A stretch of DNA of 64,000 nt, taken from NCBI RefSeq assembly GCF_011045215.1, contig NZ_CP049201.1, one strand, 5' to 3'. The notes beneath the pieces were generated by a model. The model saw nothing but the letters and a program-made list of their open reading frames with translations, was not told where the DNA came from and ran no database searches. The position numbers were made by a program, and so were the translations under genes. This DNA is from Escherichia coli (GTDB taxonomy: Bacteria > Pseudomonadota > Gammaproteobacteria > Enterobacterales > Enterobacteriaceae). Positions within the stretch are counted from its first letter, which is position 1. Each line of letters starts with the position of its first letter. Positions 9,071-34,996 of this stretch are shown here, piece after piece.

Positions 9071-11899
9071 ATGGGTTTCCCGCTGTTTAAAAAGAAAGTG
9101 AAACCGGCAATATCTGCAGAGACGACCGTGTCAGCAGAATGCGCGCAGCATTCCGGAGGCGATGACGCCGGTACTCCCCGTAACCAGACCCGCCCCGGGC
9201 GAATGACCCGTCAGGAGGAGGCGAAGATTTACCATGCGGGCCCGTCCATTATTGATTTTCTGCCCTGGGTGGAATATCTGGATGAAGAGCAGTGCCTGCT
9301 GCTGGATGACGGAGTGTCGGTCGGTGCCGTGTATGAGGTGACACCTGCGGCCACGGAAGGGCGCACGGCAGAGCGTCTTGAGCAAATCCGTGACACGGTG
9401 GAGGATGCCCTGCAGGACAGCTTTGATGAATACGACACTCACCCCTGGGTGGTGCAGTTCTTCTGTCAGGATGAAAATGATGTGGATGCGTATCTTGACC
9501 ATCTGAGGGGGTATGTGAAGCCCCGTGCGCAGCACACCGCTTTTACAGAGGCCTGGCTGGGCGAGATGGAACGGCATCTGCGGGGAATTGCCCGCCCGGA
9601 AGGGCTTTTCACGGACACGCTGGTGACCGGTCAGCCCTGGCGTGGTCAGCAGCGACGGACCCGGATGGTGGTGTACCGCCGTATCGGGAAAAACAGCCAT
9701 GACCCGATGCCGCCGGTGGCGATGCTGAACCAGGTGTGTGAACGCGTGGTGGGGGCGCTGGGCGGGGCGGGGGTGCGCTGTACCCGTCTGAACGGTCTGC
9801 AGGTACATGGCTGGCTGCTCAGACTGTTCAATCCCCGGCCGGCGTGGGTGGACAGGGACACACTGTACCGTCTGGCCACCCGTGCAGCGCCGCAGGAGAC
9901 ACCGGAGGGCATGATGCCGGTGATGACCGACTTTGCAGAAAGTCTCTGGTTCACGCCGCCGGTGTCGGATCCGGAAAACGGCGTGTGGTGGCTGGACGGA
10001 CTTCCGCATGCCGCCGTGGTGGTGGAGAAACTGCGTACACCCCCGGAGGCAGGGACGCTGACCGGTGAGAAGGCCCGGGGCGAAAAGACGGTGAATGCCC
10101 TGATGGATACGTTCCCTGAAGGCACCATGCTGTGCATGACCATTGTGGTACAGCCGCAGGACACACTCGAGGAGCGTTTTACCCGTCTGTCAAAAAATGC
10201 GGTCGGGGAAAACACAGAGTCCATTCGTGCCCGTCAGGATGTGGCCACCGTGAAGGAATATCTGGGGAACCGCCACAAACTTTACCGGGCGGGGATCAGT
10301 TTTCTGTTACGGGCTGAGGATATGGACAGCCTGAAGCGTAAGCGGGTGGCCCTGACCACGGCACTGCTGGGCGCCGGCCTGCAGCCGGTACGCCCGGAGT
10401 TTGATGTGGGGCCACTGAACAGCTGGCTGCGCGCGCTGCCCATGTGTTTTGACCCGGATACGGACAGGAAGCAGTGGTACACGCGTCTGATGTGGGTGCA
10501 GCATCTGGCTGGTCTCCTGCCGGTGACCGGGCGGGAGACGGGCACCGGTCACCCCGGATTCAGTTTCTTTAACCGGGGTGGGGATGTGCTGACCTTTGAT
10601 CCGCTGAATAAACTGGACCGCACCCAGAATGCGCACCTGCTGCTGTTTGGTCCGACCGGCGCCGGGAAATCCGCCACGCTGTGCTCCTCGCTGTCGCAGA
10701 TCATGGCCGTACATCGCCCCCGTCTTTTTATTGCTGAAGCCGGGAACTCGTTCGGGCTGCTGGCGGATTATTTTGAGAGCCTCGGGCTGAGCGTCAACAA
10801 AATCAGCGTGAAACCGGGCACCGGTGTCAGCCTGCCACCGTTTGCGGATGCACATCACCTGGTGGCACAGGGACAGACCCTGCAGGATGTGGATGAACAG
10901 ACACTGCCGGATATTGATGATGACACGCAGGACGTGAATGAGGACCAGCGCGATATCCTGGGAGAAATGGAGATCTCTGCCCGCATGATGATCACCGGGG
11001 GGGATCCGAAGGAAGAGGCGGCACTCAAACGGGCGGACAGGGCGATGATCCGTGAAGCCCTGCTGATGGCCACGCACACCACATACCGGGAGGGACGCCA
11101 GATGCTGCCGGCGGATTTGCAGTCGGCACTGTGGGAAATCTCCCGGGACAGTCAGCGAAATGAACTCCGGCGGACGAAAGCGGCAGAGATGGCGGAAGCG
11201 CTGGGGATGTTCACTCAGCCGGGCAGTTTTGAAGCGGAGCTGTTTAACCGGGAGGGGGCGCTGTGGCCGGAAGCGGATGTGACGCTGATTGACCTGGGGC
11301 ATCTGGCCCGTGAAGGGTATGAAGCCCAGATGGCGCTGACCATGGTGTCGATGACCAACATGATTAACAACATCGCGGAGCGTGACCAGTATCTGGGGCG
11401 GGACATTCTGTTTGCGGTGGATGAGGCACACATTGTGACGGTGAATCCGTTGCTGTCCCCGTACATGACCAAGGTGGTGAAAATGTGGCGCAAGCTGGGC
11501 GCCTGGCTGTGGCTGGCCACGCAGAACCTGAAAGACTATCCGAATGTCGCCGAGAAGATGCTGAATATGGCCGAGTGGTGGGTGTGCCTGACCATGCCGC
11601 CGGAGGAGGTGAACAGCATTGCTCGTTTTAAGGCACTGACAGAGGAACAGAAAGCGGTGCTGCTGTCAGCCGGCAAACTGTCGGGGTGTTACACGGAAGG
11701 GGTGGTGCTGGCGAAGAAGGTGGAGGCGCTGTTCCGGGTGGTGCCCCCGAGTATTTACCTGGCGCTGGGGATGACGGAGAAGGAGGAGAAGGCGGAGCGC
11801 CGGGCGTTAATGAAAGCGCATCAGTGCAGCGAGCTGGAAGCCGCATTTCATGTGGCCCGGAAGCTGGACAGGCTGCGTGGGCTGGCTGACGGGGAGTAA
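9071..11899 (+). CDS. traC: Conjugative transfer ATPase (VirB4/TraC-like)
   Basis: 942-aa ORF with Walker A LLLFGPTGAGKSATL; size and position typical of VirB4-family ATPases. Confidence 0.85.
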   Translation: MGFPLFKKKVKPAISAETTVSAECAQHSGGDDAGTPRNQTRPGRMTRQEEAKIYHAGPSIIDFLPWVEYLDEEQCLLLDDGVSVGAVYEVTPAATEGRTAERLEQIRDTVEDALQDSFDEYDTHPWVVQFFCQDENDVDAYLDHLRGYVKPRAQHTAFTEAWLGEMERHLRGIARPEGLFTDTLVTGQPWRGQQRRTRMVVYRRIGKNSHDPMPPVAMLNQVCERVVGALGGAGVRCTRLNGLQVHGWLLRLFNPRPAWVDRDTLYRLATRAAPQETPEGMMPVMTDFAESLWFTPPVSDPENGVWWLDGLPHAAVVVEKLRTPPEAGTLTGEKARGEKTVNALMDTFPEGTMLCMTIVVQPQDTLEERFTRLSKNAVGENTESIRARQDVATVKEYLGNRHKLYRAGISFLLRAEDMDSLKRKRVALTTALLGAGLQPVRPEFDVGPLNSWLRALPMCFDPDTDRKQWYTRLMWVQHLAGLLPVTGRETGTGHPGFSFFNRGGDVLTFDPLNKLDRTQNAHLLLFGPTGAGKSATLCSSLSQIMAVHRPRLFIAEAGNSFGLLADYFESLGLSVNKISVKPGTGVSLPPFADAHHLVAQGQTLQDVDEQTLPDIDDDTQDVNEDQRDILGEMEISARMMITGGDPKEEAALKRADRAMIREALLMATHTTYREGRQMLPADLQSALWEISRDSQRNELRRTKAAEMAEALGMFTQPGSFEAELFNREGALWPEADVTLIDLGHLAREGYEAQMALTMVSMTNMINNIAERDQYLGRDILFAVDEAHIVTVNPLLSPYMTKVVKMWRKLGAWLWLATQNLKDYPNVAEKMLNMAEWWVCLTMPPEEVNSIARFKALTEEQKAVLLSAGKLSGCYTEGVVLAKKVEALFRVVPPSIYLALGMTEKEEKAERRALMKAHQCSELEAAFHVARKLDRLRGLADGE

Positions 11900-26742: not shown

Positions 26743-27690
26743 ATGTCTGAATGGTGCCAGAATCGTTTTGAAATTACCGGTAAGTCAGTCTGTCTGGATG
26801 TGCTGACGCAGTGGATTGAAGGATGTGAGATACCGCGTTACCGCCATGCCATACAGCAGAGTATACAGCTGTTTCTGGCCGGTTGTGCAGGGCTGGTGAA
26901 ACCCACCCGGACGACGCAGTATCCGCCATATCCGGCGCTGGTTCGTCACGGTACTGGGATGTCATCTCCGGCTAACCAGGCATTTGAACAGTGGCTGGGG
27001 CTGCTGGTAAAAGATGCCGTACTGGATGAAGAGACGATAAAGACCATTGACCGCCTTTATCACCAGACATGTATTGGCGCAGTCCGCTGGGGGAATCTGC
27101 CGGATAATGCCCGGGAGATAATCACCGCGTTAATGCGTTGTCAGTATTCTGACTGGTTTGGCCTGGTCGGACTGAGCGAACACATTGATGCCGGAGCCTG
27201 CTGGAGCCGGCTGTCGGATTACCCGGAGCAGGCGCAGCCCTGTGACATGCTGATGGTCATACCCTCCCGTCTGGCCACAGAGCTGAATGGTTCAGGTGGA
27301 CTGCTGCAGGGTATTTCCACCACGACCAGCCTTTACAGCCGGATATACGGTGTGGAGTGGCCATCAGGTCACAATGTCCGCTGGGTGCGTGATGAGATGA
27401 GCAGTCTGGTGCTTCTGACGGATACGCCCTGGTATCCGCCTTCAGGTGAGCTGGTTGGTGAAATCTCGAAGGTGTTCGACTGTGAGATACGGCACTGGTA
27501 CAGCGAACCTGTCCGGGGCATACAGGGTTACAACTGTTATGACGGTGGTGAACATACGGACAGTGACCCGCAGGCTGAATGGCCGGGGAGGGAAACACTT
27601 CCTCAGCCCCGGCTGTATCTGGTGGAGGAGCGCGCTGAAGAACAGACAGAAGCCGCACCTTTACCGGTTCCGCTGGCTTCAGGCCAGTAA
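26743..27690 (+). CDS. Hypothetical protein (315 aa), N-terminus MSEWCQNRFEITG
   Basis: RBS AAGAGGAG upstream. The N-terminus loosely recalls a family of island/plasmid proteins (possibly DUF1281); uncertain without a search. Confidence 0.55.
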   Translation: MSEWCQNRFEITGKSVCLDVLTQWIEGCEIPRYRHAIQQSIQLFLAGCAGLVKPTRTTQYPPYPALVRHGTGMSSPANQAFEQWLGLLVKDAVLDEETIKTIDRLYHQTCIGAVRWGNLPDNAREIITALMRCQYSDWFGLVGLSEHIDAGACWSRLSDYPEQAQPCDMLMVIPSRLATELNGSGGLLQGISTTTSLYSRIYGVEWPSGHNVRWVRDEMSSLVLLTDTPWYPPSGELVGEISKVFDCEIRHWYSEPVRGIQGYNCYDGGEHTDSDPQAEWPGRETLPQPRLYLVEERAEEQTEAAPLPVPLASGQ

Positions 27691-27811
27691 TTAACCTCAG
27701 GGTGTCACATTCGTGGCACCCGTTTTTTCCTGTCATCTTTCATTTCAGCCCGAAGGGGAACACCTGTTCCTCCCCGGGGCCATGTGTTCCCTGTTTTTTA
27801 CGGAGAAACAC

Positions 27812-28504
27812 ATGGCCACCTTTATCGACCATCAGAAGGCCTTCATTTCGCTGTTTAATCAGACCGCCCGTTATCACAAACGCCATAAGGTGTTTGAAGA
27901 CTTTGTCAGCTGCAGTGTGATTGCCCTGGAGAACCGGCTTCAGTTCAGTGAGGCACGGGAGCAGAAGTACCTGCGAATCGTCAGTGGTTATGAAAAGCAG
28001 GATGTTATCAACATGGCGCATTTGCTTGCTCATGTCATTGAGGGACTGGAGCAGGGATTCTGTGACTTTCTGGGCAGCGTGTTCATGCAACTGGAGCTGG
28101 GGGATAAATACCGGGGCCAGTTTTTCACGCCCTGGAGTGTGGCCAGAATGATGGCACAGATGCAGCTGGGGAATGTGACGACGCTGTTTGAGAACAAGCC
28201 CTTTATCACGCTCCGTGAACCGGCCTGTGGTGCCGGCAGTATGATACTGGCTATGGCTGACACCCTGAACCATTCGGGATATCCGGCATATCGCAGGATG
28301 TGGGTGTCGGCAACGGATATTGACCCGCTGGCAGCCGGCATGGCGTATATACAACTGTCGCTGTGTGGTGTGGCCGGTGAAGTGGTGATTGGCAACTCAT
28401 TGTGTAATGAGCGACGCCGGGTACTGCTGACGCCCGGGCATTACCTCGGGAACTGGTCATATCGTCTGCGTCATTCTCAGGAACAGGTCACAGCTGATGC
28501 CTGA
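27812..28504 (+). CDS. HsdM-like N6-adenine methyltransferase fragment (SAM-binding region only, 230 aa)
   Basis: Motifs GQFFTPWSVARMM (resembles the type I/gamma MTase F/Y-TP motif) and EPACGAGSMILA (motif I-like) are present, but no NPPF/Y catalytic motif; the ORF ends soon after. Confidence 0.5.
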   Translation: MATFIDHQKAFISLFNQTARYHKRHKVFEDFVSCSVIALENRLQFSEAREQKYLRIVSGYEKQDVINMAHLLAHVIEGLEQGFCDFLGSVFMQLELGDKYRGQFFTPWSVARMMAQMQLGNVTTLFENKPFITLREPACGAGSMILAMADTLNHSGYPAYRRMWVSATDIDPLAAGMAYIQLSLCGVAGEVVIGNSLCNERRRVLLTPGHYLGNWSYRLRHSQEQVTADA

Positions 28505-28752
28505 TTTTTTATCACTACGCCAGTCTTCGGGCTGGCGTTATTATATTTGCGTTGCTTGTTATTGGGGGCGGTTTCTATGTACGTCAGGAGCATTTTTAAA
28601 CCGATGTGGATAAGTAACTGATTGATTCATCGTGATCAGCTATCGCTTCTAAGTTATTGCTTTTCTCTTATCGCATTTAGGTTATCTCATGTCCCTAAAG
28701 GTCTGCCAAACACCGTATAGCGTGGGAGTACACCCTACCGCGATAACGTAAC

Positions 28753-28768
28753 CGTACAATATTGTACG
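28753..28768. promoter_or_regulatory. 16-bp perfect palindrome CGTACAATATTGTACG (candidate operator) about 95 bp upstream of the hydrolase gene
   Basis: Seen directly in the intergenic region 28505..28863. Confidence 0.4.
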
Positions 28769-28863
28769 TTTCCCAAACGCAGCTCTGTGGGGGAAATTTG
28801 GGTTAAGTATCGACCGGTGTATGATAGGGCAATATTTAACCAGAGAAATTAAAAGGATTTGTT

Positions 28864-31089
28864 ATGTCTAAGCCGGAAAACGGCCAACAGCTGCCCGCCA
28901 TCTGTTGGCCGGTGCCTAAAAATAACCGGGGCGGGGAGTTCAGTAATCTCGAGGAGATGTTGGCGCATCTGGAGGGCGAGGCCACCGGGCACTGGCTGAT
29001 TGGCCGTAATGGTATGTGGCACGGGGGAATTCATATCACGGATATCACGACTCCGTGGTGTGCGCTCAGCGGTCAGTCGATGAATGAGGCGGTGGATTTT
29101 CCTGTGCCGTTTAAGGGAGAGCAGCCCGTGCGCTGCATGGCGGATGGTGAGGTGGTGGCGTACCGGATAAACCGGGATTCTCTCAGCGTGCCGTGGTACT
29201 GGGGGGATTTACACTACTCCGGGTCTTTTGTACTCATTCGCCATCGTATTCAGCCAGGGGAAACGGCAGAGAGCGGGCTGACCTTTTACACCCTGTATAT
29301 GCACCTCGCGCCCTGGCTGGCTTACCCGGAGCAGGACAGTACGGCGTTTAAGGTCGCAGACAGACAGTATCTGAATGCGTATGCGGACGCGTCCCGGCAG
29401 TGGGTGGTGGCAGAGTTGCCACCCGGTACACGTGTGATATGGGACAAAGCGGTAAGTGCAGACACCATGACAGGGAGCAACGGTCGGCAGTATGCGCGCG
29501 TTACGCTGGCGGAGCCGGTGACGGGCAGGATGAACCTGAACGCCGGAGACCGGGTATGGACAGTATGCGATAAAGGGAATCTGGTTCCGGTTCGTGACAG
29601 TATCATCCGTCCGGCGTGGTGGTCGCCGTTCCTGCCGCCGTCACGCGAAACGGTACAGTTTGATACGGTGGTGTGTCCGACACCTTACCCGATTAAAGCC
29701 GGTGCCCCGGTGGGGCATCTGGGCTATTTTCAGGTACCCACGGATAACGGGCATGAAAAACGCTATCAGGTGCATATCGAATGCCTGACAACGGACGACC
29801 TGCCGCGCTTCCTGAGCAACCCGGAAGGTGTGGGGCGTGACACTCCCGCCTTTGCCCGTTGTCCGAAGGATATACCGGTGTATCTGAAATATACGGACGG
29901 AGAAATACACAAGAGCCTGGTAACCACGGAGAGCGAAACGGTGATGGCGCTGTCAGGTCAGGTGGTGACGGACAAAGAGGGTAAACGCTACTGGTCGGGG
30001 GGAGGGGTATCACGCGGACTGCTGGCGGAGTCAGATGTGCAGTTGTTATCCAGGTATGACCTGGCTGACCGGGGTTTTGAGGCCACGGAGGATAACCCGG
30101 TGAGCTTTGACCATCTCGACGGAAAGAGACAGCCGAAGGGGCTGGTGAGGACGATTTTTGAGCGTTTTTTCAACGTGGCGGATAATGACGGTAAGCTCTA
30201 CAGCAAAATAGTGGCATTCAACTACCGGCAGCTGCTGGACCAGATTGATGACGCCAAATCCCCCCGGTATAACCCGGAACTGTACCGGCGCGCGGTACAG
30301 AACCCGTCAATGCGTGAGCATCTGTATCGTTTGTGCGTGAAACATCCCAGCGAGTGGTATTACTCGTCGGAGTCTTCGGTATGGAAAGCATTTTTTACGC
30401 CCCAACTGAAAAGAGACGCCACGGAGTGGTACGCCTACAGTATGAAATTTTTGACGGATCTCCGCTGGATGTACCGTGTGGCCGGAATGGTGGAAAATCC
30501 GTGGCATATGCACCCACTGGTATTTCTTGATGCTATTAATGATATAGGTATGACTCTCGATGAAGCCAGAGTTCGGGCATTTATGAGAATGATTCGAGTT
30601 GGCGAAGGGACTGTTGGTGAGGTTGGGTATGAAACATTGTTTGGTAAGCAGTCATTCATAAAAGATTATCATAAAGATTTTAGTGATCACCCGAACATAA
30701 TAATTACTAGAGGTACATTAAAGTCTTCTGCGGCTGGAGCATATCAAGTAATGGGTTATACATGGAATGATCCTAACATGTTGTTTTATCGCAAAAAATA
30801 TGGGATCGTGGATTTTTCTCCGAAATCACAAGATGAGTTTTGTGTGCTAATCCTTAAATATAAAAGGAAAGGGGCTTTAAAACTTATCATTGATGGTGAC
30901 ATTGATGGGGCTTTAGATATTTTGAGTTACGAATGGGCAAGTCTTCCCCCTGCCAGATACCCTCAACCAACCAAGAGTAAGAGTGAGGTTATGTCCTTAT
31001 ACAATAAGTATTTATTAGAAGAGCTCTTAGGGGAGACAGATCTTCACCTGCCAATCGGCTACATAAAACAAGTTTATAATGGTGTGTAA
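28864..31089 (+). CDS. Multidomain cell-wall hydrolase-like protein (741 aa) with C-terminal lambda-lysozyme-like (GH104-type lytic transglycosylase) domain
   Basis: C-terminal residues ~570-741 align by eye with recalled phage lambda R motifs (VGEGT..GYETLF, DFSDHP, AAGAYQVMGYTW, DFSPKSQDEF, KGALKLIIDGDIDGAL, EWASLP). N-terminal region has an M23-like H-x-G motif (WHGGIHITD), unconfirmed. GC drops sharply near 30540. Confidence 0.7.
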   Translation: MSKPENGQQLPAICWPVPKNNRGGEFSNLEEMLAHLEGEATGHWLIGRNGMWHGGIHITDITTPWCALSGQSMNEAVDFPVPFKGEQPVRCMADGEVVAYRINRDSLSVPWYWGDLHYSGSFVLIRHRIQPGETAESGLTFYTLYMHLAPWLAYPEQDSTAFKVADRQYLNAYADASRQWVVAELPPGTRVIWDKAVSADTMTGSNGRQYARVTLAEPVTGRMNLNAGDRVWTVCDKGNLVPVRDSIIRPAWWSPFLPPSRETVQFDTVVCPTPYPIKAGAPVGHLGYFQVPTDNGHEKRYQVHIECLTTDDLPRFLSNPEGVGRDTPAFARCPKDIPVYLKYTDGEIHKSLVTTESETVMALSGQVVTDKEGKRYWSGGGVSRGLLAESDVQLLSRYDLADRGFEATEDNPVSFDHLDGKRQPKGLVRTIFERFFNVADNDGKLYSKIVAFNYRQLLDQIDDAKSPRYNPELYRRAVQNPSMREHLYRLCVKHPSEWYYSSESSVWKAFFTPQLKRDATEWYAYSMKFLTDLRWMYRVAGMVENPWHMHPLVFLDAINDIGMTLDEARVRAFMRMIRVGEGTVGEVGYETLFGKQSFIKDYHKDFSDHPNIIITRGTLKSSAAGAYQVMGYTWNDPNMLFYRKKYGIVDFSPKSQDEFCVLILKYKRKGALKLIIDGDIDGALDILSYEWASLPPARYPQPTKSKSEVMSLYNKYLLEELLGETDLHLPIGYIKQVYNGV

Positions 31090-31527
31090 ATGAAAAATAT
31101 ATTCCTTATATTGATATTTGTATCATCATTTACTTATGCTGGTTCTGATTTTGGAACTTGGGGAACATCATGTGATGATAATGGGTTCATTCTTTCATTA
31201 AAAGAAGATTCATCTCCATTTGTTGTTAGTGATAATCAGATAGTTGTATCCATACATTCAAGAAGGATTAACCATAAAGTTATTGATGTTTTTTTTGATG
31301 ATACATTAGATCTTGGGATAGGAGGCATGGGGTTTAACTGGGGGGATGTTGATAAAACCAAAAAAATAGCCGAGTTAACATATTCTGAAAATAATAAATG
31401 GCTGATGAAATGGTTTGGTTTTTGGGATGCAAAAAAAAAGACACGTTTTTGGGTGAAAGAGCCTGATTTTATCCAAACATACGCAAAAAATAACGTCATA
31501 ACATTGATTAAATGCGAAGAACAGTGA
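31090..31527 (+). CDS. Secreted small protein (145 aa), candidate immunity protein for the upstream hydrolase
   Basis: ATG directly after the upstream stop (TAAATG); signal peptide MKNIFLILIFVSSFTYA; AT-rich like the hydrolase C-terminus. Confidence 0.5.
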   Translation: MKNIFLILIFVSSFTYAGSDFGTWGTSCDDNGFILSLKEDSSPFVVSDNQIVVSIHSRRINHKVIDVFFDDTLDLGIGGMGFNWGDVDKTKKIAELTYSENNKWLMKWFGFWDAKKKTRFWVKEPDFIQTYAKNNVITLIKCEEQ

Positions 31528-31582
31528 TGGTTTGACTGCAATGGCTAAATTGAGGCAGCAATAATTTCAGGAAAACAAAAAT

Positions 31583-31760
31583 GATCTTCTTGAGATCCTT
31601 TTTTCTGAGAGTAGTTTCTTGTCCTGTAAATGAAAAAACGCCGGAAGGCGGGTTGGTTCGGGTTCGTTGATCTACCAAATCTTTGAAGCTGGGCGGTAAC
31701 AGGACTCTATGTGGGAGACAGTTACCAATACATTATAGTACTTCCCAGTAATCTGCTGAT
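31583..31760. other. Remnant resembling a ColE1/p15A-type plasmid origin (RNA I/RNA II region)
   Basis: GATCTTCTTGAGATCC, CTGTAAATGAAAAAACGCCGGAAGGCGGG and GATCTACCAAATCTTTGAAGCTGGGCGGTAACAGG parallel recalled p15A/pBR322 ori strings in the same order; diverged, not verified by alignment. Confidence 0.4.
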
Positions 31761-31849
31761 CAGACCGGGCCAGCCAGAGATGCAGGTCGGTGATGATCAA
31801 CCGTCGTATACGAATCTGTATGGTGTTGAGCTGCTGTCCCGATTTAGTA

Positions 31850-32590
31850 TCAGACTGGATGTAGTGAATCTGTTTTTCCGGACGAGCATTTCATGGTGAA
31901 TTGTCGTGGTGTTATATTAAAGTGTTGTCTGAAAAGATAGACAAAGTAGGATGTACTGGAATAGCCACATTTTTCAGCAACGTGTTTCACTGAGTATTTC
32001 TGTTCCAGTAAGTTTCTGGCTGAAAACATTCGTACTTCGAGTAAAATTTTACTGAAACATGTGTTTTCAGACAGAAGTTTTTTCTTTATCAGACTTTCAC
32101 TCATATATACATATTCAGATATATCGCGCAACTTCCATTGTCGTGATATATCTGACAGTAATATGTTTCGTACTTTTCCTGAAAAAGTTGGGATGCCAGA
32201 TGAAAGGAAGTTTATTAAAGCGGGGCGGGTATTAAAAATTGACAATAACGAGAAACAGACAGCTTCTCTGAATTCCGGATGGATATGATTTTCATAATTT
32301 ATATTGTTTATGAGTTCTGACAACACTTCCGGGTAGGCAAAACATTTTTTCAGAAAATGAACAGGCCCGTCGTAGGTTGGTTTTTCCCCTGTATGGCGAT
32401 GGTGTATATAATGGTTTACTGTATCTTCATTCAGAGGTACTTCAGTGAATTTATCTGAAAATGTAAGAAAGCTTGTCATCAAAGATGGATTAACAAGAAG
32501 AATATCGCCATAATTTAATATTAATACATCATTAAAAAAACGGAAATTAAATGATCTTTTTATCAGTATGAAGGAGCAGATGATAGTCAT
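31850..32590 (-). CDS. AraC-family transcriptional regulator, AppY/EnvY-like
   Basis: C-terminal HTH region (ERQWKLRDISEYVYMSESLIKKKL ... VAEKCGYSSTSYFVYLFRQHFNITP) closely parallels recalled E. coli AppY ([24 protein letters not shown] ... [25 protein letters not shown]). AT-rich. Confidence 0.7.
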   Translation of the reverse strand: MTIICSFILIKRSFNFRFFNDVLILNYGDILLVNPSLMTSFLTFSDKFTEVPLNEDTVNHYIHHRHTGEKPTYDGPVHFLKKCFAYPEVLSELINNINYENHIHPEFREAVCFSLLSIFNTRPALINFLSSGIPTFSGKVRNILLSDISRQWKLRDISEYVYMSESLIKKKLLSENTCFSKILLEVRMFSARNLLEQKYSVKHVAEKCGYSSTSYFVYLFRQHFNITPRQFTMKCSSGKTDSLHPV

Positions 32591-32873
32591 AATTCTTTGC
32601 GCTGTTACAGTTTTTTATTTATGTAAGTATGGATGAAGGGAAAAAAAAGGAAAAATATTTTGTTTTTTTGTGATTGCTGTCACGTAATAAATAAAAAGCA
32701 ATTGATTATATTGCTGTATTGTGCTGTAAAGAAGAGTTAAGCTCTGTCTGGTACTGATTTATTCCGGGGGACGGAGGGGCATGGCAGATGAAGGGATGAA
32801 CAGGGACTTTTTGTTTAATTCGTTGACAGCAACAGTCATAAGAGAAAGCAACAATTCACATATGGGGCAGTTT

Positions 32874-33569
32874 ATGAAAACTATCTTCATAGCAGAGCCT
32901 GTCGTGACGGCAGGTAACAGTAACAGGCTGATTGCGGTGGAGATTCTGAGCCGATTTTATTCTGTTAACGGAAAACAACTTCCTACCGTGAAAACGCTGA
33001 ATATGTTTACAGCAGAGATGAAAATTGATTTGCTGGAATTACAGATAAGAAAAATAATAAGTAAAGCTTCTTTTTTTAGTAAGCATAATATACTGTGTTC
33101 CCTTAACGTCGATTATGATACATGTCAGTATATATACAGAAATAAAAATATTCAGGATATAATAAAGTCATATGATTTTATTGTTCTTGAAATTTCTGAA
33201 ACATACCCGGTCATAAAGGCTGATGATGCAATAATTCCTTTTCTCATTAATCTGTCAGAACATATCTGGCTGGATGATTTAGGGAGTGGTAACAGTACAA
33301 TACATACGTTGATAAGAAATAAATTCCAGGCAGTGAAACTTGACAAAAATTTTTTTCAAATACATAGTATGAAACCGCATTTTGCTGCATTAATAGACAA
33401 TATAAAAAGATTATGCCCTCTGGTTATTGCCGAGGGTGTTGAAAACAAGAATTATCTGCATGCTGCTTCAGGTGCTGGTTTATGGGGCGTTCAGGGATAT
33501 TATTTTCCATCAGTACCGCTTGAGGATATTCATCAGATAAAGTTGGATTTTTCTGAGAACATCAGCTGA
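32874..33569 (+). CDS. EAL-domain protein, YdiV-like (degenerate EAL; EIL instead of EAL)
   Basis: EAL-domain motifs (EILSRF, DDLGSGNST, KLDK, AEGVE, QGYYF); DDLGSGNSTIHTLIRNKFQAVKLDKNFFQ parallels recalled YdiV LGAGNSTMKAVFDGLFTRVMLDKSFIQ. Start chosen at ATG 32874; ORF-track start is 32781. Confidence 0.65.
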   Translation: MKTIFIAEPVVTAGNSNRLIAVEILSRFYSVNGKQLPTVKTLNMFTAEMKIDLLELQIRKIISKASFFSKHNILCSLNVDYDTCQYIYRNKNIQDIIKSYDFIVLEISETYPVIKADDAIIPFLINLSEHIWLDDLGSGNSTIHTLIRNKFQAVKLDKNFFQIHSMKPHFAALIDNIKRLCPLVIAEGVENKNYLHAASGAGLWGVQGYYFPSVPLEDIHQIKLDFSENIS

Positions 33570-33803
33570 TGAGTCTGTCATACTTTTTCTTCCCGGGTAT
33601 ATCCGGGCTGTGTTTAAATATAATAGTCATAAGAAAACTGGTTATTATATTTTCAGGTGAATTTGTTTACATGTTCTGATCGGGACTCGCTTTCAGATTG
33701 CAGGGAGTAATAAAAAGTACTATCACTGCGTATTCCGTTCTACTCTATCACGGATTGGCCCAAACTGTGTCGATTCAGATGCCATTTTGCACTATCACTT
33801 ATT

Positions 33804-34538
33804 ATGAGCTGTTTTTGTATTCATTTTAGCAGCCATCTCCATGATGGTATTGACAGTGGCTGTCCCGGTAAGAAATATGATATACACCGACCATTAAATA
33901 TGCTGGCGTTAAGCTGGCATAATACTTCTGGTCGCTATTCACTGGGGGGAAGTTATCAGAAAGATGATTCCGTGCAAATTTTAGGGGAATTAAATAAAAA
34001 ATTTAAGATCCGTGAAAGAGATTCTGCGAAAAGTCAGTTAAAATTTTTCTACGCTGAACTTGAGGGTTTTAATAAAGAAAAAAAGAGAAGGGCTGGGGAA
34101 CCTGATGATACCTATCTCCTTTCCGGACAGATATCATTTAATACACCTGATTTTGGAGCATTTGTCAGTGCGGGATATATTAATCATGCAATATCAGGAA
34201 CAAATGTAGATACCGATCGTTCTTATGTATATTCTCTGAGTATAGATCGTAATAAAGAACAAATGTACTCTTTTTAGACAGGATTTACATATAACATCAC
34301 ACCAGAATTAAGTGCAATGATGACCCATGGTTATGAATCCAGTCGTAAAGATGTAGAAATACAGGGGGCATGTATTTTGGGAGCAATGACTTACAATATC
34401 AATAATGGACCTAATATATTTCTTTCTGCAGACAGATGCAGAGAAAAAAGAGATGGCAGCCGTTTTGGTGATCGTCTTAATTATTGGGATGTTAAATTAA
34501 GTATTAGGTATGATATATATATATATGATTCTCTGTAA
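33804..34538 (+). pseudogene. Interrupted ORF: two same-frame ORFs separated by a single in-frame TAG at 34278-34280; no signal peptide
   Basis: Seen directly: 33804..34277 and 34317..34538 are in the same frame and read through apart from one amber codon; alternating hydrophobic pattern suggests a beta-barrel protein remnant. Confidence 0.35.
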
Positions 34539-34996
34539 AGAGGCAGATGCTGAATCCATTCACCCTGTAGTCCATGATTTCGAATCTGGTAGGGTGTATT
34601 TATAACTGACAATATAATGAGGTAGTTCCGGTTTCTCTTGTGTTTATAAATTTCTCATGTCTTTGTTAAGCAACTGTTTGTATTATTCTGATTGACTTAT
34701 TTTCACTGGTGTTAAGACCACAGGTATTGTCAGTATTCGAACAGTATTTCACGAAATTCTTATACAGTATTGCACGGTTTTCCGGACGTTTAAACTTCAA
34801 ATGGTTAAACTGGCTTCACAACAGGAGCTTCTGTTGTCTGTATTGTTCGAAAATACGGGGATACCGTATTTTCTGAGTTATATTATACAATCTTGTTTTA
34901 TAAAATACCCCTGTGCGAATGAACACACAGGGGTATTTTATATTTCAGTTTTTCACCATAGAGTATGAACAGATTGCAAATATAATCCCGACAATA

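Follow-up and report, generated by a model that had tools for sequence, protein, structure and literature searches.

A probable mobile type VI secretion effector–immunity pair with a GH104 toxin domain in an integrative and conjugative element of Escherichia coli

Results

A pair of abutting genes with a sharp step in composition

We analysed a 64,000-nt stretch of Escherichia coli contig NZ_CP049201.1 (assembly GCF_011045215.1; hereafter the window), which carries an integrative and conjugative element (ICE) of the PFGI-1/ICEclc class integrated at the tRNA-Phe gene pheU. This report concerns two adjoining plus-strand genes of the ICE. The first (28864..31089) encodes a protein of 741 amino acids (aa), and its stop codon immediately precedes the ATG of the second (31090..31527), which encodes 145 aa. 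From its open reading frame (ORF) and its accession we assign the 741-aa product to the subclass I WHIX cargo effectors of type VI secretion systems (T6SS), with a C-terminus of glycoside hydrolase family 104 (GH104); the 145-aa product is the candidate cognate immunity protein. Exact-sequence look-up of the 741-aa product returned WP_164475979.1 / QIF14975.1. Scans with Pfam and NCBIfam gave no match for either protein, and for this reason both genes are mostly annotated as hypothetical. The WHIX and GH104 identifications were made by a search of PDB sequences, from the context of homologues and from the literature.

The two genes differ in composition from the ICE backbone, and the effector gene is itself composite. 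Codons 1–558 (28864–30536) have a GC content of 0.565 and a GC content at third codon positions (GC3) of 0.66. The values fall to 0.378 and 0.33 in the segment encoding the C-terminal domain (30537–31089), and to 0.317 and 0.25 in the 145-aa ORF (31090–31527); the backbone (window 1–28500) has a GC content of 0.537. Along the sequence, GC was 0.57–0.61 over 28900–30100, 0.35–0.40 past ≈ 30500 and ≈ 0.30 in the 145-aa ORF. The initial annotation, made from the DNA letters, had described a GC-rich tract of about 560 codons that turns AT-rich at about 30540 and stays so through the abutting ORF, and these values bear it out. The step lies at the site where DNA homology to other C-terminal variants stops (30536/30537), which is also the protein junction at aa 558/559.

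The N-terminal module is a WHIX domain

Residues 1–558 (28864..30537, plus strand) constitute a WHIX domain, a T6SS loading and secretion module that includes a LytM/M23-like domain and SH3b-like subdomains. WHIX is a bipartite T6SS secretion domain named for its WHxxxH motif (Fridman et al., PLoS Biol 2025, PMC12135965). A regular-expression match placed this motif at aa 52 (W52-H53-G-G-I-H57, 29017..29034, plus strand), and an alignment of 46 sequences showed H53, G54, G55 and H57 to be invariant. For comparison by BLASTP we used residues 1–452 of the reference V. alginolyticus effector Va01435 from the S1 File of the WHIX paper, in which the reference WHIX regions are 31–126 and 271–476. 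Region 1 was matched by aa 14–150 of the effector (Va01435 4–122, E = 1e-22, 34% identity) and region 2 by aa 455–509 (Va01435 347–402, E = 5e-5), the latter pairwise alignment covering part of the region.

The same protein is present in the published data. WP_164475979.1 is a leaf in the Fig 1B tree file of PMC12135965, and its last 100 aa, identical to those of the window ORF, are in the C-terminal CLANS file. A plasmid variant with a GH19 C-terminus (WP_252499454.1) is listed in Dataset S1 together with its signal-peptide neighbour. Since the exact accession sits in these data, the WHIX family assignment has already been published at the catalogue level. According to the same study, WHIX alone suffices for T6SS export, loading takes place on the C-terminal tail of VgrG and the C-tail of VgrG4 is required, and more than 98% of the genomes encoding WHIX carry a T6SS. 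The domain is fused almost exclusively to peptidoglycan-targeting domains, with 'Lambda lysozyme-like' and 'Pesticin lysozyme-like' among the listed types, and the effectors are flanked by immunity genes encoding signal peptides. Validated members include Vibrio alginolyticus WP_005373349.1 and Awe1 of A. jandaei (PMC12135965).

Using HMMER with residues 1–560 against 1.84 billion cluster representatives, we found 825 relatives of the module. Many of these carry an extra 130–180 aa ahead of it, and by eye these extensions look like amidases of the CHAP or NlpC/P60 type. 'Double-blade' members with a second toxin domain ahead of WHIX form subclass II of the published family (PMC12135965).

The initial annotation had noted a partial M23-like motif in the N-terminal domain. 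The module does show the M23 β-sheet fold. The Pfam Peptidase_M23 profile, on the other hand, did not match the 741-aa protein even at E ≤ 10, nor did any NCBIfam model. Although H53, H57 and H304 are invariant in the 46-sequence alignment, the motifs are HxxxH and 'VHIE' instead of the canonical HxxxD and HxH. The N-terminal fold is thus M23-like, and membership of the M23 peptidase family is not established.

The C-terminal domain is related to phage lambda lysozyme

The toxin domain (aa 559–741, 30538..31089, plus strand) was identified by phmmer against PDB sequences: aa 571–703 match phage lambda lysozyme (1am7/3d3d) with E = 6e-18. In the alignment, 'vgEGT' stands opposite lambda 'wsEGT', so that E581 (codon 30604–30606, plus strand) is aligned with the catalytic Glu19 and is the predicted catalytic residue. 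The suggestion that a domain resembling the lambda R lysozyme begins at the composition drop was therefore correct. Pfam lysozyme profiles found no match in the effector; NCBI names close relatives 'glycoside hydrolase family 104 protein'. Stand-alone GH104 relatives are at most 75% identical to the toxin domain.

With lambda R, a GH104 lytic transglycosylase, the domain shares a match of ≈ 130 residues including the conserved catalytic Glu, and by this homology it is presumably a lytic transglycosylase as well. The two proteins differ in setting: lambda R is a holin-dependent endolysin, whereas the domain in the window forms the C-terminal warhead of a secreted effector of 741 aa that is accompanied by a candidate immunity protein.

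C-terminal domains are exchanged at a single junction

A search of 5.8 billion proteins gave ≈ 50 clusters of full-length relatives (78–99% identity) and many further proteins that match the first 75% of the query alone (92–95% identity). The latter carry other C-termini. We distinguished at least seven peptidoglycan-hydrolase types, and all seven diverge right after the motif WHMHPLVFLDAI (aa 547–558, 30502..30537, plus strand), which marks the boundary between constant and variable parts both in the protein alignment and by the end of DNA homology. Every variant carries "…NPWHMHPLVFLDAI" and diverges at the next residue, aa 558/559; W547, H548, H550, P551 and F554 are invariant among the 46 aligned sequences. 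The alternative C-termini include the pesticin-type muramidase PF16754, PF21277, GH19 (PF00182), GH73 glucosaminidase (PF01832) and several that have no Pfam match, and each type examined has its own downstream signal-peptide protein. The homologous loci thus show a modular architecture, with a shared N-terminal 558 aa (92–95% identical) and swapped cassettes. This exchange at one junction, together with the co-varying downstream gene, supports the polymorphic toxin/immunity reading of the initial annotation. The WHMHPLVFLDAI-coding junction is likely to be a recombination site, and swapping of toxin/immunity units there would account for the GC step.

VENN and PxxxxDPxGL are the demarcation motifs of the CdiA-CT and Rhs-CT polymorphic toxins. 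The WHIX effectors resemble these toxins in that a conserved delivery region ends in an invariant motif, after which unrelated toxin domains are exchanged as units with their immunity genes. They differ from them in delivery domain, secretion system and target compartment, the targets of WHIX effectors lying almost exclusively in the peptidoglycan.

The downstream protein carries a signal peptide and tracks the toxin domain

The N-terminus of the 145-aa protein, MKNIFLILIFVSSFTYA|GSD, is by inspection a typical Sec signal peptide (≈ aa 1–17), in agreement with the initial annotation; the protein also has two conserved cysteines, C28 and C142. Its family is narrow (11 clusters, again lacking Pfam and NCBIfam matches), and at all loci examined its gene adjoins that of a WHIX effector of the GH104 type.

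The downstream gene follows the C-terminal toxin domain independently of the WHIX module. In the metagenomic locus L022, the N-terminal module is 51% identical to that of the window, the C-terminal domain 87% and the small protein 70%; in L021 (E. roggenkampii), the corresponding figures are 86%, 92% and 81%. On pesticin-type plasmids the N-terminal module is 94% identical, and both the C-terminal domain and the small protein (LprI/DUF1311-type) are unrelated to those of the window. This co-variation points to an immunity function for the 145-aa protein.

Public gene calls give a 66-aa ORF after the effector in L002, L004, L024, L029 and L030, and a 37-aa ORF in L006, where the contig ends. 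We considered truncated immunity genes and rejected them: the 66-aa calls reflect differences in the start site chosen by the gene caller. The 145-aa ORF is intact in 10 of the 10 loci that hold its full length, and two further contigs end inside it. As no contig that spans the whole ORF shows it disrupted, this gene is often mis-called in databases.

A relative lies within a T6SS cluster

One relative, P0127 (E. coli and E. marmotae), has a WHIX module 46–48% identical and a GH104 C-terminus 42% identical to those of the window effector. Its gene is located in a complete T6SS cluster with the order TssK-TssL-OmpA-Hcp-ClpV-VgrG-DUF3828-DUF3828-effector-147-aa ORF, PAAR following further downstream.

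Two side observations concern this relative. At its T6SS-cluster locus (L015 8914–10000), two DUF3828 genes lie between vgrG and the double-blade effector. DUF3828/Tai3 is among the immunity domains reported in genes flanking WHIX (PMC12135965), which agrees with a role of the two genes in immunity to the amidase blade at the N-terminus. In the P0127 protein cluster, a WHIX effector of E. coli type (906 aa) is also deposited under a 'Bacteroides heparinolyticus' metagenome-assembled genome (MCF0257365.1), which is probably contamination of the metagenome bin.

The cassette is shared with ColE1-type plasmids

The closest relatives of the effector (94–95% identity) reside on Rop/ColE1-type plasmids of ≈ 7 kb, which also carry ProQ/FinO-like, DUF1508 and small unknown genes. 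By blastn, window 28790–31601 is 93.9% identical to the plasmid loci L002–L004, and all variants begin to match at 28790–28793. The left edge of plasmid homology thus delimits a 5' leader (28790..28863, plus strand), presumed to hold the promoter and ribosome-binding region, in which we found no strong σ70 consensus.

Downstream of the pair, 31576..31728 is 89.7% identical to L001 2441–2596, which overlaps an Rfam RNAI match at L001 2496–2601. As this segment is ≈ 90% identical to one covering most of RNA I, we conclude that the ICE copy carries a truncated remnant of a ColE1-type replication-control region (RNA I / RNA II promoter region). The remnant, which includes a small hairpin and T-run at ≈ 31583–31605, was recognised by alignment to plasmid RNA I loci; Rfam itself found no complete RNA I in window 27500–33000. 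In L003 and L010, both plasmids, the cassette is followed directly on its 3' side by RNA I. The simplest reading of these alignments is that the cassette was captured from a plasmid into the ICE.

Sibling variants also occur as orphan chromosomal copies in Citrobacter and Enterobacter. Downstream of such orphan pairs, a 27–32-nt match to window 31573–31604 has been kept (Citrobacter L011 12676–12702; E. asburiae L014 12859–12889). When complete E. coli RefSeq genomes were searched by megablast, the only matches were one GH19-variant plasmid and an unrelated 210-bp flank element, and none was a full-length copy of the cassette.

This element, of ≈ 210 bp (window 28578–28793), is unannotated, abuts the left edge of the cassette and is 92–94% identical on more than 350 E. 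coli plasmids. In both records that we inspected, fragments of IS66 or ISNCY transposases adjoin it, and it is possibly an insertion sequence end or a recombination hotspot. Upstream of the effector gene, the plasmids have in common a conserved set of small genes in divergent orientation (81 aa, DUF1508 of 51 aa, and 74 aa; L003 525–1346), and L001 5089–5316 encodes a 75-aa Cys-rich acidic protein (…CDGCELPGSACTCNYCLECEQ…). A ColE1/Mob-type metagenomic contig, L007 (2291–3541 and 7882–10670), encodes Hcp, a Tlde1-domain protein and a small ORF besides a WHIX-pesticin effector with an LprI-type gene; judging from this gene content, small mobilisable plasmids seem to carry several T6SS effector modules. 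We found nothing specific in the literature on T6SS effectors carried by ColE1 plasmids, and the words 'mobile' and 'conjugative' are absent from the main text of PMC12135965.

The cassette occupies a fixed slot of the ICE

The ICE is recognisable by TraD (768–2975), a TraC-type ATPase (9071–11899), several TIGR037xx ICE proteins, a UvrD-like helicase (39042–40622), a MobH/PFGI-1-class relaxase (40534–42180) and a tyrosine recombinase (42238–43230), and it ends at tRNA-Phe (43423–43498). Past this end lies the E. coli pheU neighbourhood with dsbD, dcuA, aspA, epmB, blaEC ampC and frdA. The cassette is situated in the cargo/accessory region, outside the block of type IV secretion system (T4SS) genes.

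The initial annotation had asked whether homologues co-occur with this type of ICE. They do: the cassette recurs at the same slot in several variants of the family, where it follows DUF1281 and N6-methyltransferase-like genes and precedes first variable cargo, then the helicase–relaxase–integrase block. Among the ICE relatives L024–L030 this slot holds two alleles, L024–L027 being of the window type and L028–L030 having an immunity protein identical to that of plasmid L003. This suggests repeated plasmid–ICE exchange or allelic recombination.

In the window, the cassette is followed by AT-rich ICE cargo (31850–37549) encoding a YdeO/GadX-like AraC regulator (31850–32590, minus strand), an EAL-domain protein (32781–33569), a truncated UidC-like porin fragment (33804–34277) and an AIDA-I-type autotransporter (34997–37549, minus strand). 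Related ICEs have instead a GH2 family glycosidase (β-glucuronidase-like) and a major facilitator superfamily transporter.

Discussion

The gene pair is probably a mobile T6SS effector–immunity pair, consisting of a WHIX cargo effector with a GH104 toxin domain and a periplasmic antidote. How such a toxin might be delivered had been left open by the initial annotation. The question has a published answer: WHIX is a T6SS module that loads on the VgrG tail. In the mechanism that we propose, WHIX would load the effector onto the VgrG of a T6SS encoded elsewhere in the genome, a reliance that we infer because the copy is an orphan with no adjacent vgrG. Firing would then place the toxin in the periplasm of a neighbouring cell, where the GH104 domain, with the predicted catalytic Glu581, would cut the glycan strands of peptidoglycan. 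The 145-aa protein would be exported to the periplasm of the producer and would block the toxin when sister cells fire at each other. Recombination at the WHMHPLVFLDAI-coding junction would bring in new toxin/immunity units, and the copy described here would have been taken from a ColE1-type plasmid into the cargo region of the ICE.

Several observations weigh against this proposal. No T6SS, VgrG, Hcp or PAAR gene was found among the ORFs checked in the 64-kb window. The effector is consequently an orphan here, and the initial annotation was right in reporting that the window has no T6SS, CDI or Rhs genes, as judged from the same ORFs. Most close relatives are likewise on small plasmids or at orphan chromosomal sites that lack vgrG, and the experimentally validated WHIX members lie outside the subclade of the 741-aa protein. 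The AlphaFold2 (AF2) model was of low confidence for the C-terminal 180 aa of the effector (predicted local distance difference test score, pLDDT, < 50, with a shallow alignment), and modelling of the immunity protein failed (mean pLDDT 34). The 145-aa protein has no detectable similarity (E = 0.37) to the 147-aa ORF downstream of the T6SS-cluster GH104 effector, so that no common GH104 immunity family can be claimed. Its putative immunity role is proposed from three features, namely position, signal peptide and co-variation.

The pair could instead encode a T6SS-independent diffusible bacteriocin in the manner of colicins and pesticin, which would be released, taken up by way of an outer-membrane receptor and countered by a Pim-like small periplasmic protein. 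The ≈ 7-kb Rop/ColE1-type plasmids of the close relatives are a classic bacteriocin vehicle, and sibling variants carry the pesticin muramidase domain PF16754. In E. coli ED1a, a 2026 preprint describes a 'pesticin' that is encoded with its immunity gene on a small plasmid and is possibly a member of the present family, and reports it in the culture supernatant; in that strain, however, the immunity protein of the pesticin did not protect, and colicin K was responsible for the killing. We consider a bacteriocin quite unlikely and rejected a colicin-like reading, with which the pair shares only the ColE1-type vehicle. There is no LexA (SOS) box upstream of the effector in the window or on plasmid L003, and RNA I, which directly follows the immunity gene, leaves no room for a lysis gene. 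The N-terminal module, moreover, is WHIX, shown by experiment to be a T6SS secretion signal (PMC12135965), and relatives adjoin vgrG. Many family members have an extra enzyme domain before WHIX, at the position that a translocation domain occupies in colicins.

Two other readings were considered. Because the gene lies inside a conjugative element (TraD, TraC and a MobH-type relaxase) and pairs an M23-like fold with a lytic-transglycosylase-type domain, a pairing known from some conjugation hydrolases, it might be a VirB1/P19/CwlT-like enzyme remodelling peptidoglycan so that the type IV secretion apparatus of the ICE can pass the wall. This is very improbable. Small plasmids whose gene calls include no T4SS gene carry a 94% identical cassette, copies occupy orphan chromosomal sites in Citrobacter and Enterobacter, and within the ICE the gene belongs to the cargo region and not to the T4SS block. 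The effector has no signal peptide of its own, its secreted partner co-varies with its C-terminus, and the exchange of its C-terminus between seven types of hydrolase is typical of a toxin, not of a housekeeping enzyme. It is scarcely credible that the gene is a phage endolysin, captured or left as a remnant, that plays no part in competition at present. The C-terminal domain has homology to lambda R and to GH104 proteins that stand alone as 'phage lysins' (≤ 75% identical), and its AT-rich composition marks it as foreign. Yet no holin, spanin or other phage gene lies in the vicinity, the domain continues the reading frame of a WHIX module that is itself intact and conserved, and many plasmids and ICEs have kept both genes intact and conserved. 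Phage ancestry of the GH104 domain is compatible with the T6SS effector–immunity pair that we favour.

A further reading seems to us unlikely: the plasmid- and ICE-borne clade of WHIX lysozymes with no adjacent vgrG might have been partly freed from the cognate T6SS spike, either through diffusible, pesticin-like release or through a role mainly in stabilisation of the mobile element. If stabilisation were at work, T6SS-armed siblings would kill cells in which loss of the plasmid or ICE had removed the immunity gene as well. In this reading, ColE1 plasmids would act as a shuttle seeding cassettes into ICEs and chromosomes, as the origin remnant suggests.

A catalogue published in 2025 already contains both the toxin family and this very protein (PMC12135965); the finding is real but not new, and the locus opens no new class of system. 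With the subclass I WHIX effectors of that catalogue, the window protein shares the bipartite WHIX domain with WHxxxH, a C-terminal peptidoglycan-targeting domain and a downstream signal-peptide gene. It differs in context, being an ICE orphan whose closest relatives are on ColE1-type plasmids and not beside vgrG/PAAR. The contextual additions are modestly new: capture from a ColE1 plasmid into an ICE with an origin remnant, a fixed ICE slot with two alleles, and a precise junction motif. A further contextual addition is the narrow, unannotated family of candidate immunity proteins for a GH104 toxin.

A close parallel is TseP of Aeromonas dhakensis, a chimeric amidase–lysozyme T6SS effector with the carrier VgrG2 and the immunity protein TsiP (eLife 2025, PMC11893102), cited as containing WHIX (PMC12135965). 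Its N-domain is a Zn2+-dependent amidase that was superposed on 3SLU, with a predicted Zn site of H19, H23, H109, H339, H359 and E539, and has a GC content ≈ 10% above that of the C-domain, a difference interpreted by its authors as a fusion event (PMC11893102). Going by this published description, the window effector shares with TseP both the GC disparity between the N- and C-terminal parts and the M23-like N-domain. TseP differs in having a C-domain of another lysozyme type and another immunity protein. A phage-lysozyme-like warhead and periplasmic immunity are likewise common to pesticin/Pim of Yersinia pestis and to pesticin-domain T6SS effectors (for example V. cholerae VgrG3cp and V. fluvialis TssI2), and siblings with the same WHIX module combine the pesticin domain PF16754 with an LprI/DUF1311-type downstream gene. 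In contrast to pesticin, the window warhead is GH104 and not T4-lysozyme-like, and the protein has no FyuA-binding or TonB-box translocation architecture. Pesticin depends on receptor-mediated uptake, whereas WHIX and a T6SS would deliver the window effector.

For annotation, a pair on an E. coli ICE that now goes under "hypothetical protein", "GH104" or "M23 metallopeptidase" can be given the names of a WHIX-class T6SS effector and a candidate immunity protein. This would add a function in interbacterial competition to this ICE family and to common cryptic ColE1-type plasmids. It also points to a traffic route, the same 2.8-kb cassette being present on small plasmids, in a fixed slot of the pheU ICE and at orphan chromosomal sites. 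The locus illustrates the way in which Enterobacteriaceae reshuffle their T6SS arsenals, and it prompts one to ask which VgrG serves a WHIX effector that is an orphan.

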